Shown here: piece by piece, positions 3,240 to 43,904 of the stretch | How the letters are laid out: every line of letters starts with the position of its first letter | How positions within the stretch are numbered: the first letter of the stretch is position 1 | NCBI RefSeq assembly: GCF_048403405.1 | Contig: NZ_CP183129.1 | Direction: 5' to 3' (one strand) | Length of the DNA: 64,000 nt | From: Escherichia coli | GTDB lineage: Bacteria; Pseudomonadota; Gammaproteobacteria; Enterobacterales; Enterobacteriaceae | Position numbers and translations under genes: made by a program | The notes under the pieces: model-generated | Databases searched by the model: none | What the model was told of the DNA's origin: nothing | The model's input: the letters and a program-made list of their open reading frames with translations, nothing else

Positions 3240-3763
3240 GCAAGATTGACTATCAGGCACTGCGTGAAAAGGCAGAGAAAGCAACGTGTGGTGTGTGGTC
3301 GCTCGAATATGGAGAGGGACGATTTGATGGTGATGATGCGCTAATTCATCGTGAAGTTGCTGGATATATTCCCATTTGCAGAATTGAAGGAGCGCATCCT
3401 GAAAGCGGTTTCGATGAAGATTTCCAAACTGAACAGCAGGCCAATGCTGAATTCATCGCCGCAGCCAATCCGGCTACTGTGCTGGCGCTTCTGGATGAAC
3501 GGGAAAGAAACCAGCAATACATCAAACGCCGCGACCAGGAGAACGAGGATATTGCGCTAACGGTAGGGAAGCTGCGCGTTGAGCTGGAAGCCGCAGAGAA
3601 GCGCATAGCAGAACTGGAAGCGCGGGAAATACTGCTCCCTGAACGTAGCAGCATGCTTCATCGAACAGATTTTCACGATGATTACCAAACGGTAATGGCA
3701 TACAAAGTTTCTGAAGTCATCGATGCAATCCGCGCTACTGGCATTCGCATCAAAGGAGAGTGA
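3236..3763 (+). CDS. Ead/Ea22-like protein
   Basis: GTG start after AAAGGAGG; MSKIDYQALREKAEKA... N-terminus and coiled-coil C-terminus typical of Ead/Ea22-like early proteins (recalled). Confidence 0.55.
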   Translation: MSKIDYQALREKAEKATCGVWSLEYGEGRFDGDDALIHREVAGYIPICRIEGAHPESGFDEDFQTEQQANAEFIAAANPATVLALLDERERNQQYIKRRDQENEDIALTVGKLRVELEAAEKRIAELEAREILLPERSSMLHRTDFHDDYQTVMAYKVSEVIDAIRATGIRIKGE

Positions 3764-3764
3764 C

Positions 3765-4121
3765 GTGGAAATAAATCCAGAAGATGAGTTAAGCAATATC
3801 GTTTTATTTCCGGTAAAAGAGGATGACCCACGTAATCAGGTTAATTTTCTTTATGAGCCATCGGAAAGACCATACTGCCATCACGCTTCTGTCCGGGTTG
3901 ACGAAAAAGAGCGTCAGGTCCGCTGTAAAATCTGCGGTGCAGTTGTGGAGCCGTTTGACTGGATGCTCTCTGTGGCGAAAAGAGAAACCAGACTGGCAGA
4001 TGATGTAAGGCTATTGCGCCAGGAGGAACAGGAAAGGCGGAAAAATATAGAAAAGTTAATTCAGATTGAGCGTAACGCGAAAGCGCGGATACGCAGGGCG
4101 ACAAAATCCAGAACTGAATAA
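3765..4121 (+). CDS. Hypothetical protein with zinc-ribbon-like CHH...CKIC motif
   Basis: GTG at 3765 immediately after the Ead stop, with RBS AAAGGAGAG upstream; 118 aa, basic C-terminus. Confidence 0.4.
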   Translation: MEINPEDELSNIVLFPVKEDDPRNQVNFLYEPSERPYCHHASVRVDEKERQVRCKICGAVVEPFDWMLSVAKRETRLADDVRLLRQEEQERRKNIEKLIQIERNAKARIRRATKSRTE

Positions 4122-9116: not shown

Positions 9117-9205
9117 TAATTGTGCGTTAAATGTCAACCACCTACGATAAATAAATCATATGTGGTTAAATTGGTAATAATTTAATTGCGTACGGAGTCA
9201 TTGAT

Positions 9206-24559: not shown

Positions 24560-25411
24560 ATGAAAAAAATAAATTTGTTTTTTGGCATAGTGCTTTCAAT
24601 AGTCTCTGTAAATCCTACAGCTGCCAGTTCATTGCAATGCAATAAGGATAACTTTGATGCATGCAAAACGTGCGAACAATTATCAAAGGCTATCGACTTA
24701 AAAGAACCTAATCGTGGCGATTACTATAGAGGGGCTTTATGGAATGGGCTTTACGCCTCTTATGTAATTAATTGCCCTGTGGTTGCAGAGAAGTTACTGA
24801 GCCATGGTGCTATACCATCATATGGCGGATATATGGGGTCTATGGGGGCGGTTCTGACAGGAAAATGGCCTCATAACAATGAATCAATAAATCTTTCATG
24901 GGCAGATTTGCTTATAAAACATGGATTTGATGTTAATAGGCATACGGGGAATTATAAATCAGCTACTGAAGTATGGGCTATAGATAAAAAACAGATTGAA
25001 TATAAGTCAGTTTTTGACAAGTTAATTCAATCCAGCGAAGTAAAACCACTCGATCCTTCAAGAAATTTAGAATGGTGTGCGTCTGAAGGGTATCGCTCAG
25101 TTGTCGTTTATTCCCTTAACTCATGTATAGAAAATGCTATAAAACGTTTGGATGACGGTGTTTCTTCAGCGTCTGATATTTCATCAGCAGCCGTAAATTC
25201 CTGTACTAGCGATGTAGAAAATTTCAATAAGCATTTGGCATGCAAAGCAGCTGTTAAAGAAAACTCTGATAAAGAGAGAAGCAACGTTTACCAGTTATTA
25301 ACCAGTGATAGTCAAATGAATAAAAATGTTATTGATATGCTGAAGGAAAGAAATATTGAAACGGTTCTTGAATTTAGAGCTGAAAATCGATCAGCGAAAA
25401 CTGCACAGTGA
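24560..25411 (+). CDS. Secreted hypothetical protein with ankyrin-like repeats (moron), AT-rich
   Basis: Signal peptide MKKINLFFGIVLSIVSVNPTAAS; two ankyrin-like segments (...AEKLLSHGAIPS..., ...ADLLIKHGFDVN...); start 1 nt after the gp16-like stop; terminator follows. Confidence 0.55.
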   Translation: MKKINLFFGIVLSIVSVNPTAASSLQCNKDNFDACKTCEQLSKAIDLKEPNRGDYYRGALWNGLYASYVINCPVVAEKLLSHGAIPSYGGYMGSMGAVLTGKWPHNNESINLSWADLLIKHGFDVNRHTGNYKSATEVWAIDKKQIEYKSVFDKLIQSSEVKPLDPSRNLEWCASEGYRSVVVYSLNSCIENAIKRLDDGVSSASDISSAAVNSCTSDVENFNKHLACKAAVKENSDKERSNVYQLLTSDSQMNKNVIDMLKERNIETVLEFRAENRSAKTAQ

Positions 25412-25417
25412 TCAAAC

Positions 25418-25442
25418 AGGCCGCTTTCGCGGCCTTGTTTTT
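25418..25442. terminator. Bidirectional terminator hairpin
   Basis: AGGCCGC-TTTC-GCGGCCT followed by TGTTTTT; hairpin core GGCCGCTTTCGCGGCC is identical to the one at 28670. Confidence 0.55.
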
Positions 25443-25602
25443 AACGAATGCCACCGCCGCCAGGGCGGGAATCCGCAGAACGCCCACCGCAGCGGGAGCC
25501 GTCAGCGGCAGTATCGCTGTCGTGCTGACAACGACCGGCAAAGGCCTGAGTTGAAGCTACCAGAGACAACAAAACGAACAGTGCAGCAAATGCTTTTTTC
25601 AT
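25441..25602 (-). CDS. Small secreted Gly/Cys-containing peptide (53 aa) with its own promoter (moron)
   Basis: Internal start MKKAFAALFVLLSLVASTQAFA gives a clean signal peptide; promoter-like hexamers upstream and terminator downstream. Confidence 0.45.
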   Translation of the reverse strand: MKKAFAALFVLLSLVASTQAFAGRCQHDSDTAADGSRCGGRSADSRPGGGGIR

Positions 25603-25672: not shown

Positions 25673-25695
25673 ACAAAAAAGCCCGCAGCGCGGGC
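25673..25695 (-). terminator. Minus-strand rho-independent terminator
   Basis: GCCCGC-AGC-GCGGGC followed on the minus strand by TTTTTT, immediately after the stop at 25696. Confidence 0.5.
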
Positions 25696-25929
25696 TTACT
25701 TTTCTTCAGGTTTGTTGTCTTCAGATTTCTTCTTGATGCTTGGTTTTTGTCTAAGACCGAAAATACCAGCCACTGCAACAACTGTACCGATCACTGTGCC
25801 AGCTAGAACTTCATGACCTGTTAAACCTAATAATGTTGCACAAGCTACTGTAAAAATAGTTGCACTCAGGCCAAACCACTGCCCACGTTTATCTCTATTA
25901 ATAGCCCCGTCAAGTGCCTTTTCCTCCAT
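25696..25929 (-). CDS. Small two-TM membrane protein (possibly the C-terminal part of a frameshifted larger gene)
   Basis: 77 aa with two hydrophobic segments and a Lys-rich tail; the same frame stays open upstream to ~26073. Confidence 0.45.
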   Translation of the reverse strand: MEEKALDGAINRDKRGQWFGLSATIFTVACATLLGLTGHEVLAGTVIGTVVAVAGIFGLRQKPSIKKKSEDNKPEEK

Positions 25930-25958
25930 TTTCTGGCGGTGAGCAAACTCCTTCTCCG

Positions 25959-26243
25959 TCAGCTGGAAGATGCGTTCGGGGGCATCAGGTAAAATATCCT
26001 GATACCCGCGAAGCAGATAGGGGGAGGAAGCGGACCCTGAAACGCATGGTGAGCGACAACTATCTCCTGAATTTCAGGGCGATCAAGAACTCTTGTGAAG
26101 GCATCTGGGTGTTGAATGATCTCGTTACTTAGCCCTTCCTCAACTTCCTCGAACTCAGTTTCTTCGTTATCACTTGGTTGCCCAATAGATTTTTGCATAT
26201 TTGTCGAAGGACATTCCTTTAGCTTCTGGTTTTCCTCTTGCAT
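25959..26243 (-). CDS. Acidic hypothetical protein (possibly the middle part of a frameshifted gene)
   Basis: 94-aa ORF overlapping the upstream ORF by 74 nt in another frame; C-terminus degenerates into Pro-rich sequence near a G5 run at ~26019-26026. Confidence 0.3.
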   Translation of the reverse strand: MQEENQKLKECPSTNMQKSIGQPSDNEETEFEEVEEGLSNEIIQHPDAFTRVLDRPEIQEIVVAHHAFQGPLPPPICFAGIRIFYLMPPNASSS

Positions 26244-26496
26244 TTGAGTTTTTCCCTGTCACTATTGCCCATTTTCCGCCAGCAGGCGCTGCAATTTTTT
26301 TTCCGTTCTTTACTATATATTCAGCATAAACACGATTTTCTGACCGTCTGAGATCGTCTCCGACCATATTCATGTCTCTTGATATAACTTTGACGACAGA
26401 GTCTCGGTTTAAAGCCTTGGCATAGTTGGAGCCAGGAACGATACCCAAAGGGGTGCCAGACTCTATAGCCAGCTCCTTGACATATCTTCTGCTCAT
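26170..26496 (-). CDS. Hypothetical protein, putative DNA-binding/regulatory N-terminal module
   Basis: ATG at 26496 after GAGGT; MSRRYVKELAIESGTPLGIVPGSNYAKALNRDSVVKV... Confidence 0.45.
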   Translation of the reverse strand: MSRRYVKELAIESGTPLGIVPGSNYAKALNRDSVVKVISRDMNMVGDDLRRSENRVYAEYIVKNGKKIAAPAGGKWAIVTGKNSNARGKPEAKGMSFDKYAKIYWATK

Positions 26497-26617
26497 ATGA
26501 ACCTCAACCAATCGACTTTACCAATCGGGTAATTTTAAACATGAGTATAATGCTTTTAACTGCAACGAGTGTAAACAATTATTGATAATTGTAGGCACAT
26601 CCCTGTGCCGCCGCCCG

Positions 26618-27717: not shown

Positions 27718-28173
27718 TTGGGGGTGCCCGTGAACACGAAGAGAGCTACAGTAATGCAGCATTTGAGGAAATCAGAAAAAAATAAAGACCATGAAATATT
27801 GAGTAAGGCCATTGTTCGGGCTTCCAATAATACTGTTATACCTCATGCTGAAGAGTCTGGACAGAAATTTCTTATTCGGTATTTCACTGAAAATAGTGCA
27901 GTTGAGGAGATTTTAAAACATCAGGGAGGGGAATTTAAATGTGGAAAACTGGCAGATTATGTTCGTCGTGAAACGTCTGAACAAGAAGTATATTATGCTG
28001 ATATTAATCATAAGTCAGGTGTGAAAATTGTAATAGGCTATTACACAACTCCCAAAAATGTTATGCATGAGGTCCCAAAGATGTCCGTCGAGAAATCTCA
28101 TGCAATCTCGCGCAGGATGTTTGCACGCACTGCCGAAGATATGGCTCAGGAGCTCTACGACGATGCTGAATAA
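27718..28173 (+). CDS. Hypothetical protein with acidic C-terminus; candidate antitoxin/immunity partner of the downstream YafO-like gene (ATG alternative at ~27754)
   Basis: 151-aa ORF, AT-rich; its stop overlaps the start of the next gene (ATGCTGAATAA). Confidence 0.45.
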   Translation: MGVPVNTKRATVMQHLRKSEKNKDHEILSKAIVRASNNTVIPHAEESGQKFLIRYFTENSAVEEILKHQGGEFKCGKLADYVRRETSEQEVYYADINHKSGVKIVIGYYTTPKNVMHEVPKMSVEKSHAISRRMFARTAEDMAQELYDDAE

Positions 28174-28477
28174 ATTCCAGGGGTTGGTTCACCCTGGAAT
28201 TTTTGGGAAGGACCCTGAGCTAATACCTATCAAAAACGCGTTCATAGATCACTGGCGCTACGGTCATCATAAGGATTTCGGAAAGGACACTCTGTTTCGG
28301 GATCCACCGAAAGAAATGCTGGAATATCACATACGCCACGTTCACGTAAACATCGGAAACTATACTGACAAGTTTGGTGAGAGCGGTACGGACAATGCTG
28401 GAAAAACTGGGCGTCTGGGAAGAAAGACAAGACCACTAACAAGCATAAAAAGATCCCAACCAGTGACGTGTATGTGA
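28163..28477 (+). CDS. YafO-like toxin, N-terminal part (gene appears frame-split)
   Basis: FGKDTLFRDPPKEMLEYHIRHVHV resembles the recalled YafO motif FGRDALYDD...ERVAHIHL. Confidence 0.4.
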   Translation: MLNKFQGLVHPGIFGKDPELIPIKNAFIDHWRYGHHKDFGKDTLFRDPPKEMLEYHIRHVHVNIGNYTDKFGESGTDNAGKTGRLGRKTRPLTSIKRSQPVTCM

Positions 28478-28668
28478 TTTATCTGGTCACATCTGAACGC
28501 CATGCCTTCCTTCTGGATTATTGGGATGAACCAGCACATAAGACAGTAGAAATTGACGAGCAGAAGCAAAAATTAGTTGTCGAGTGTGACAGAATTTTGC
28601 GGCTGAAAAAGTTAGAATCCATGCCGCGCGATGCTAGTTTGTGGGACCCAGAATTTTACGACTGTTAA
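28468..28668 (+). CDS. YafO-like toxin, C-terminal part in the -1 frame
   Basis: YLVTSERHAFLLDYWDEPAHK resembles recalled YafO HLVYCQGAFDEQAWLLIAILKPEPHK; overlaps the previous ORF by 10 nt. Confidence 0.35.
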   Translation: MYVIYLVTSERHAFLLDYWDEPAHKTVEIDEQKQKLVVECDRILRLKKLESMPRDASLWDPEFYDC

Positions 28669-28669
28669 T

Positions 28670-29041: not shown

Positions 29042-29145
29042 TATCTATTCGTATTTACAGCCTTTCTATCCATATGTGGTTTTTCAGGTAATAGAATAAC
29101 CAGATATGCGGCGCAACGGGTGCTGCGACTATCTGGAGATTTAAC

Positions 29146-43659: not shown

Positions 43660-43904
43660 GACTGCTTTACACAACCTTTTTGCACGTCTTTTCCCCAGGC
43701 GCGCGGCGAAAGAATACTTGTACCAGGGCAAAGGATCGTTTTCGGATGGAATAATCTTCTTCCATAACCATTTGAATACAAAATAACTTTATCTCAAACC
43801 GTTATCATTTTGACTAAAGTCAACGAAAATAATATTGCCGCCTTGAAGAAAGGAGGTATAATCCGTCGATTTTTTTTGTGGCTGCCCCTCAAAGGAGAAA
43901 GAGT

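Follow-up and report, generated by a model that had tools for sequence, protein, structure and literature searches.

Introduction

Several described arrangements bear on a locus in which neighbouring ORFs overlap or abut in different frames. Overlapping gene pairs read out of frame with each other are known from phages, as in lambda Rz/Rz1 and P2 lysB/lysC, and genes that use a programmed frameshift include dnaX, prfB and the phage tail genes G/GT. The gene closest to the one studied here encodes WP_001154803.1, a DUF2335 protein of Uetakevirus-like prophages and of phages EC.W1-9 and vB_EcoP_ZX5. Its phage protein family, phrog_3996, is labelled 'membrane protein' and placed in the moron category. 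We found no functional study of DUF2335 in the literature; few papers name the family, and they do so in passing. Two T6SS papers mention a 'DUF2335 phospholipase', which is probably a slip for DUF2235. Morons themselves are independent units of promoter, gene and terminator carried in prophages (PMC3594210).

The window analysed here is a 64,000-nucleotide segment of an Escherichia coli chromosome (contig NZ_CP183129.1). An earlier reading of its sequence alone had pointed to three minus-strand ORFs that might be one gene of about 270 codons, with a regulatory N-terminal domain and a two-TM anchor, broken by two homopolymer frameshifts. We compared the locus with complete genomes, phages and public contigs, and arrive at a different anatomy: two overlapping genes, the second of which is one base short.

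Results

Setting and layout of the ORFs

The window contains a ~35 kb Uetakevirus-like (epsilon15-like podovirus) prophage, which adjoins the chromosomal genes yfgI/yfgH/pdeF/ppx/ppk ... hyf. The three ORFs occupy an accessory region of this prophage, between a BRO-N antirepressor-like gene and the internal-virion/DUF919 genes. The lysis cassette, with holins, an endolysin and a DUF2514 spanin-like gene, lies elsewhere in the prophage.

The three ORFs are on the minus strand in three frames, just as the sequence-only reading described them. ORF1 (26170..26496) is intact and encodes a basic soluble protein of 108 aa from its ATG, with a pI of 10.0; the ORF list gives it a TTG-extended start at 26511. 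It matches phrog_10654 from end to end (E = 9.5e-66, residues 1-108 to profile positions 1-108). Its 3' end overlaps the 5' end of the DUF2335 gene (PF10097 / phrog_3996; minus strand, 25696..26243) by 74 nt (26170..26243), with DUF2335 in the +1 frame. The DUF2335 gene encodes 182 aa when intact, and in the window it is both frameshifted and altered by a private V163G substitution. What remains of it is seen as two ORFs. The middle ORF (25959..26243, minus strand, 94 aa) is the 5' fragment, consisting of 75 native and 19 out-of-frame codons before a stop, and the last ORF (25696..25929, minus strand, 77 aa) is the 3' fragment, which comprises native codons 106-182 and encodes two hydrophobic helices. 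The last ORF opens at an internal Met codon (25929).

The second junction

The frameshift site is a homopolymer at 26020..26024, which fixes exactly the position of the G5 run noticed earlier. The run is G5 on the plus strand and C5 in the coding sense, and it encodes the Pro-Pro of a GPLPPP motif; near-identical relatives have six bases. Phage EC.W1-9 has a 912-nt counterpart of the 911-nt region at 99.8%, and phage vB_EcoP_ZX5 one at 99.3%; the alignment contains a single indel, the coding strand reading CCT-CCCCCC-TAT in the relatives and CCT-CCCCC-TAT in the window. The products of the six-C relatives run on without interruption (...HHAFQGPLPPPYLLRGYQDILPDAPERIF...) and close with the same pair of hydrophobic helices. 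RefSeq annotation of complete E. coli genomes gives the gene as a 182-aa DUF2335 domain-containing protein, WP_001154803.1, with an ATG equivalent to 26243.

The uninterrupted frame is absent from the window, where the one-base deletion brings a stop after 94 codons. The middle ORF does degenerate at the homopolymer, as had been noted, ending in ...GPLPPPICFAGIRIFYLMPPNASSS and a stop (that is, GPLPPP-ICFAGIRIFYLMPPNASSS and a stop). The frame of the last ORF does stay open upstream of its ATG, for 48 codons, reading ...SPYLLRGYQDILPDAPERIFQLTEKEFAHRQK-MEEK; the same stretch is also given as ...PYLLRGYQDILPDAPERIFQLTEKEFAHRQK-MEEK. The segment is carried by 67 complete RefSeq E. coli genomes, all of which keep the frame open, and a 101-nt probe across the site found no perfect match to the G5 allele among them (0/67). 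Among the complete genomes compared, the G5 contraction thus appears private to the window's assembly.

The restored protein matches Pfam PF10097 (E = 2.9e-15, residues 58-107 to model positions 1-50 of 50) and phrog_3996 (E = 5e-58). Both matches span the break, which indicates that the arrangement of the ORFs is more than chance. Homologues of the DUF2335 protein are ~165-189 aa long, have their own starts and carry precomputed PF10097 hits. The GPLPPP motif is kept without variation by 19 homologues, which come from Escherichia, Salmonella, Klebsiella, Enterobacter, Cronobacter and others; residues G70, P71, L72, P73 and P75 do not vary across the 19 sequences, and the family motif can be written G-P-L-P-x-P, then a Y..(I/L)LP...R(I/V) helix. 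The window encodes the G-P-L-P-x-P motif but loses the frame within it. The homologues have either an in-frame C6 or no run at all (CCACCACCT, CCACCTCCT), and a requirement for frameshifting is not conserved.

Comparison with the 88%-identical DEC5E allele shows mostly synonymous changes in one continuous frame on either side of the break, with a pN/pS of 0.04 upstream (codons 26-75) and 0.08 downstream (codons 76-165). Because relatives with G6 are open, the domain matches span the break, the motif at the break is invariant and selection follows a single frame, we take the middle and last ORFs to be the two halves of one DUF2335 gene. The expectation that a single full-length homologue would run across the ORFs is borne out for these two, which together correspond to the 182-aa DUF2335 protein, and fails for ORF1, which lies outside it.

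A second private change distinguishes the window's gene. The substitution GTT to GGT produces V163G in the IFVLR motif, at a residue that all 11 paired homologues share and that is at least 90% conserved in the 19. As read from the assembly, the window's DUF2335 product would consist of 75 native residues and a tail of 19 foreign ones, lacking both the conserved core and the membrane anchor. The 77-codon ORF is the leftover 3' part of the gene.

The first junction

No relative differs from the window at the first junction. The A5 runs that had been noticed there are real, at 26249-26253 and 26190-26194, and neither marks a difference from other genomes. Of the two homopolymer frameshifts proposed earlier, the one at the second junction is therefore upheld by G5 in the window versus G6 in relatives, and the one at the first junction falls away.

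ORF1 is annotated as a separate protein, WP_001609225.1. A profile search of 1.84 billion representative proteins returned only about ten relatives, all of them stand-alone and 61-167 aa long, truncated fragments included. They share an N-terminal A-I-E-a-G-t-P-L-G-I..S.Y ... D-M-R.V-G.D.R, a variable linker and, at the very C-terminus, the motif F-(D/E)-(K/R)-Y-A-x-L-Y-x-x-T-K. The pN/pS of ORF1, measured against the 88%-identical allele, is 0.17.

The two-gene arrangement recurs well beyond near-identical copies. In 11 of 11 loci, down to ~30% identity, a DUF2335 gene in the +1 frame overlaps the 3' end of an ORF1-like gene by 32-77 nt. The contexts covered were varied: in E. coli, a Uetakevirus-like prophage and a different prophage remnant beside yfhH; loci of Klebsiella and Enterobacter; a lambdoid phage, with the pair downstream of Q; a Rep3/ParA/RepL plasmid-like element; and contigs from metagenomes. 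The cassette was also found next to an IS element. The ORF1 homologue in Klebsiella and Enterobacter (~50% identity) is present but was missed by the gene finder.

The DUF2335 start differs in kind among the loci. At five loci its ATG is embedded in the TAT-GCN of the invariant Tyr-Ala of ORF1. Klebsiella and Enterobacter lack the embedded ATG (TAC GCC, TAC GCA) and use one lying upstream, which is preceded by a strong AGGAAGG Shine-Dalgarno sequence; both ATGs are present in E. coli. A strong Shine-Dalgarno sequence precedes DUF2335 at two loci. Over the overlap (74-75 nt) the window and the DEC5E allele differ by one substitution, compared with a pS of 0.15-0.64 in the flanks, a low rate that fits dual coding. 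Taken together, these comparisons identify ORF1 as a conserved partner gene, separate from the DUF2335 gene. The sequence-only reading had also asked whether homologues exist as separate genes with their own starts: ORF1 and DUF2335 do, and the middle and last ORFs are never found as separate genes in the 67 complete genomes.

Regulatory sequences of the cassette

The cassette is bounded by signals of its own. A sigma-70-like promoter (26547..26575, minus strand; TTTACA, 17 nt, CATTAT) is predicted upstream of ORF1 from its match to the consensus, and the DEC5E, L009 and Enterobacter loci have kept the same block ahead of their ORF1. A GAGG Shine-Dalgarno sequence precedes ORF1. At the other end is an intrinsic terminator (25679..25697, minus strand), made up of a GC-rich stem of 8 bp and a TTTTTT stretch. 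It shares a single base, the last, with the DUF2335 stop codon, and every aligned copy has kept it.

Between the promoter and the ORF1 start lies an operator-like palindrome, TTACC-N5-GGTAA (26518..26532), which reads TTACC-CGATT-GGTAA in the cassette. The window holds seven exact copies where 0.05 are expected, all in prophage intergenic regions, and related prophages have 10-11. The palindrome is found 25-56 nt upstream of ORF1 in 7 of the 11 loci, distant ones included, and the cassette retains one copy even outside Uetakevirus-like contexts. Phage TL-2011b, which is without the cassette, has 10 copies, including one on either side of its HTH repressor gene. Because of this placement around the repressor gene, the palindrome looks like the operator of a phage repressor or Cro. 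The 15-bp palindrome marks most operons of these Uetakevirus-like prophages. We also considered ORF1 itself as the protein that binds the palindrome, as the site travels with the cassette, and set this aside because of the 10 copies in the cassette-less TL-2011b.

Features of the two proteins

ORF1 has no hydrophobic segment (maximum KD19 0.42), and it had no Pfam, NCBIfam or PADLOC match. The N-terminus of the DUF2335 protein, the stretch that the overlap encodes, is disordered and poorly conserved. It is followed by an acidic helical region (pI 4.65 for residues 1-107) and then a long helix with the conserved core. Hydrophobic helices at about residues 123-165 are flanked by basic residues. 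The C-terminal two-TM anchor predicted earlier is thus real: Kyte-Doolittle peaks start at residues 123-124 and 144-147, and the AF2 model has helices at 88-142 and 145-165. Both termini of the protein are most likely cytoplasmic.

The AF2 model of DUF2335 alone is all-helical, with a pLDDT of 64, and a Foldseek search with it against the PDB gave 0 hits. Sequence searches of the PDB with both proteins gave no meaningful match. DUF2335 had no NCBIfam match and only a chance-level match in PADLOC (E = 0.045, MTase model). No component of a known anti-phage defence or toxin-antitoxin system was thus recognised among the PADLOC and NCBIfam models. A linker-fused model of ORF1 and DUF2335 built from the 11 paired sequences reached a pLDDT of 47 and was discarded.

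Indels elsewhere in the window and in public contigs

The 26 kb of flanking chromosome differs from that of FDAARGOS_497 by 324 substitutions and a single indel, which lies in the upp leader (T8 versus T7); all genes there are intact. Eleven other long A/T runs (A/T of at least 7) are at the expected length, including an A8 run in ORF1 that is 275 nt from the frameshift site. Apart from the G6 run, the aligned prophage block contains no G/C run that reaches six bases. At a distance of 2.4 kb, a YafO-family toxin gene has a private deletion of one base, located in an AA dinucleotide at ~28392. A sister genome sharing the yafO frameshift was sought, and the truncated yafO-family product is absent from a collection of 15 billion proteins, as is the window's 77-aa fragment.

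At least 17 public contigs, which come from unrelated samples and represent different prophage backgrounds, carry the identical 94-aa truncated product (C6 to C5). These 17 contigs are noisy, with further homopolymer deletions and almost no substitutions; one of them, L033, has 8 homopolymer indels and 2 mismatches in 6.3 kb. Other contigs show C6 to C4, several show A8 to A6, and several break at the A8 run. Single deletions also occur in complete genomes at other runs of the cassette. An ST648 genome has A8 to A7 in ORF1, and that of 2015C-4498 has C5 to C4 in the DUF2335 gene, which PGAP labels 'frameshifted'. The recurrence of C6 to C5 in noisy contigs makes the site demonstrably error-prone, and the run-length variation among public contigs reads as a signature of sequencing error rather than a biological switch. 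In two alleles the run does not exist: the DEC5E-type allele encodes PPP as CCA CCA CCT and L009 as CCA CCT CCT, in both cases without a homopolymer and with the frame continuous.

Discussion

The locus is best explained as a two-gene operon in which ORF1 is a gene in its own right and the DUF2335 gene has been broken once, most likely by a real deletion. We put the probability of this reading as a whole at about 0.55. The deletion would be a recent slippage event private to this genome, inactivating DUF2335 in a decaying accessory region of the prophage, and this origin is slightly favoured for the missing base. If the deletion is real, DUF2335 has lost its function.

The anatomy itself leaves little room for the alternatives. 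A single gene of about 270 codons, formed by all three ORFs and broken by two homopolymer frameshifts, would account for ORFs that abut or overlap and for A5 runs in the first overlap, and one database protein, P0004 (168 aa), does join ORF1 to the N-terminus of DUF2335. P0004 is the sole fused protein, and its source is a homopolymer-damaged 1.4-kb contig with three truncations (A8 to A5, A5 to A4 and C6 to C4). The window equals all relatives across the first junction, no relative is fused, and 11 of 11 loci have two overlapping genes. Moreover, ORF1 homologues of 110-167 aa all stop at the common C-terminal motif, DUF2335 homologues start on their own, and the +1 relation between the frames could not be bridged by a simple -1 slip. 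The absence of a fused homologue, the stand-alone relatives of ORF1 and the undisturbed first junction lead us to reject the ~270-aa gene, which we consider very improbable. The opposite view, three independent small genes in which the split halves of DUF2335 work as separate polypeptides, is scarcely credible either. Each ORF does have an ATG, and the 77-aa fragment exists as a RefSeq protein record, WP_250394630.1, but the internal ATG at 25929 has no Shine-Dalgarno sequence before it, the split state occurs in 0 of 67 complete genomes, the break falls inside an invariant motif of one Pfam domain, and the last 19 residues of the middle ORF are simply out-of-frame sequence.

The cause of the missing G is a closer matter. 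It is nearly as likely as a real deletion that the base was lost as a homopolymer undercall in sequencing or consensus building, in which case the anatomy would be the same and the gene intact in the organism. The same 94-aa product on 17 noisy contigs and the C4 and A6 calls elsewhere point in this direction, as do the different single homopolymer deletions that ST648 and 2015C-4498 carry in the cassette, the lack of any high-quality complete genome with the G5 allele, and the fact that the affected run is the sole G/C run of at least six in the aligned prophage block. An undercall fits less well with the expected lengths of the other long homopolymers and the absence of an indel in any gene over 26 kb. 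V163G, a private substitution at a conserved residue, is atypical of consensus error, and the nearby yafO-family deletion is in an AA dinucleotide, not in a long run. A designed switch is very improbable, whether it took the form of programmed -1 slippage at C CCC CCU, ribosomal or transcriptional, or of a phase-variable contingency tract. If tRNA-Pro slipped by -1 from CCU onto CCC, GPLPPPY would be restored exactly, and run variants of C4 and C5 do occur in public contigs. The ancestral and overwhelmingly common state, however, is C6 in frame, which needs no slip, and tract length does not vary among the 67 complete genomes. Programmed slippage, one of the causes suggested by the sequence-only reading, is rejected: the 88%-identical DEC5E-type allele and that of L009 are continuous without any homopolymer, and neither a recoding signal nor a need for recoding is conserved. 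Phase variation was rejected as well, since the G5 allele is missing from all 67 complete RefSeq genomes and the variants are confined to contigs with other homopolymer errors. Six bases are also short for a contingency tract.

With a two-gene operon as the preferred reading, the intact cassette can be described as follows. A predicted promoter and an operator-like palindrome are followed by ORF1, a basic cytosolic protein of 108 aa, then by the 182-aa DUF2335 membrane protein and the terminator. DUF2335 combines an acidic, most likely cytoplasmic N-terminal domain with the GPLPPP helical core and a C-terminal membrane hairpin of two helices. Its start codon lies within the 3' end of ORF1, in the +1 frame, and the two are therefore separate proteins whose translation is probably coupled. 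In a working model they would interact on the cytoplasmic side of the inner membrane. The palindrome is the same as that of the phage's early operons, which suggests a repressor-controlled pair; the cassette could belong to the repressor regulon, silent in the lysogen and switched on after induction or infection. The loss of one base in the window leaves ORF1 intact and truncates DUF2335.

Our tentative picture, a little short of an even chance, is of a mobile two-protein module that combines basic, cytosolic ORF1 with acidic, membrane-anchored DUF2335, a repressor-controlled and coupled pair that would act at the inner membrane early after induction or infection. Such a module might sequester a basic partner at the membrane, or might have an exclusion or host-takeover function.

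For annotation, the locus is neither three genes nor one 270-aa gene; ORF1 and a single frameshifted DUF2335 pseudogene should be recorded. It is an ordinary pseudogene or sequencing slip in the already known DUF2335 family. The site is also a recurrent homopolymer trap in public assemblies, and RefSeq now lists one fragment under the name 'MFS transporter'. Beyond annotation the value is modest and lies in the conserved, overlapping ORF1-DUF2335 operon, shared by temperate phages and plasmids, and in the 15-bp palindrome. This gene pair and the dispersed palindrome are the sole items that merit follow-up.

The comparison with known systems places the locus more precisely. Like dnaX, prfB and the G/GT genes, it has two abutting ORFs in different frames and a slippery-looking run. 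Unlike them, its relatives need no frameshift and the run is not conserved, and it does not belong to this class. The intact pair has more in common with overlapping genes of the Rz/Rz1 type, as its second gene opens within the first, in the +1 frame, and distant relatives keep this layout. The cassette differs from these in that the genes overlap only at a 3' end, by 32-77 nt, and neither protein has a lipoprotein signal. A spanin pair was rejected as an identity: ORF1 is without a TM segment, the TM region of DUF2335 is C-terminal with no signal peptide or lipobox, and the prophage has a lysis cassette of its own.

The cassette resembles morons in being self-contained, with a promoter-like site and a terminator, and in occurring in unrelated contexts. 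It differs in that its promoter is followed by the palindrome that flanks the repressor gene, and it is probably repressed in the lysogen. The pseudogene C6953_RS30990 of E. coli 2015C-4498 is a parallel case, with the same gene in the same type of prophage inactivated by a single-base homopolymer contraction. In that genome another run was hit (GCCCCCG, 43 nt downstream, C5 to C4), which makes it an independent event. Nearest of all is the gene for WP_001154803.1 in Uetakevirus-like prophages, EC.W1-9 and vB_EcoP_ZX5, whose DNA is 99.8% identical to that of the locus and which has the same neighbours, promoter, terminator and, V163G apart, the same protein. The window is one base short in the C6 run, and where that gene has a single reading frame the window has an ORF split into 94 aa and 77 aa.

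Cassette homologues and their annotation

In Klebsiella and Enterobacter, a conserved 111-aa homologue of ORF1 with about 50% identity occupies positions 3742-4077 of both comparison loci (L010 and L014), and neither copy has a gene call. Because this homologue is uncalled, the DUF2335 gene appears to be preceded by an 'intergenic' gap of 390-480 nt. The database protein P0063 (WP_250394630.1), named 'MFS transporter' in RefSeq and found on 22 contigs, is the 77-aa C-terminal piece of frameshifted DUF2335 genes in the version that retains Val at residue 163. This record is an artefact of annotation and goes back to the homopolymer problem that splits the DUF2335 gene. Two complete E. coli genomes carrying the cassette have each independently lost one homopolymer base: in ST648 (L003) the A run of ORF1 is reduced from A8 to A7, leaving ORF1 without annotation, and in 2015C-4498 (L004) a C5 run in the DUF2335 gene has become C4, and the gene is annotated as frameshifted.

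Other indels in the window

Across 26 kb of flanking chromosome, the sole indel relative to FDAARGOS_497 lies in the T run of the upp leader (43870-43877), where the window has T8 and FDAARGOS_497 has T7. This reiterative-transcription tract is also T8 in K-12, so the window would carry the normal allele.

Besides the DUF2335 gene, the prophage has a second frameshifted gene, which encodes a YafO-family toxin (28163-28669, plus strand). A private one-base deletion at about 28392 changes the GGAACAATG of relatives to GGACAATG. Relatives encode an intact protein of 168 aa that contains ...FGESGTEQCWKNW..., whereas the product in the window reads ...FGESGTDNAGKTG... at the same place and then reaches a premature stop; this shortened product is absent from a collection of 15 billion proteins. 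Two accessory genes adjoining the cassette are both intact and common among relatives. One (25441-25602, minus strand) encodes a protein of 53 aa whose N-terminus resembles a signal peptide (MKKAFAALFVLLSLVASTQAFA...). The other (24560-25411, plus strand) encodes a protein of 283 aa that also begins with a signal-like stretch and that one source calls an ankyrin-repeat protein.

Dispersed palindromes in the prophage

The exact 15-nt palindrome TTACC-N5-GGTAA occurs seven times in the window (at 2133, 2195, 5957, 9102, 26518, 27578 and 29027) against 0.05 expected, and all seven copies lie upstream of operons, in intergenic regions of the prophage. A second recurrent motif, (C)ATATGTGGTT(T/A)... 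with GGTAA(T) a few bases further on, is found at about 2176-2190, 9160-9175 and 29078-29095, about 40-60 nt away from several of the palindromes, and may belong to a promoter architecture specific to the phage. Related prophages hold 10-11 copies of the palindrome, and in phage TL-2011b it flanks the HTH repressor gene on both sides. The palindrome is probably a repressor/Cro operator spread across the entire phage genome, a dispersal like that of the C1 operators throughout the genome of P1.
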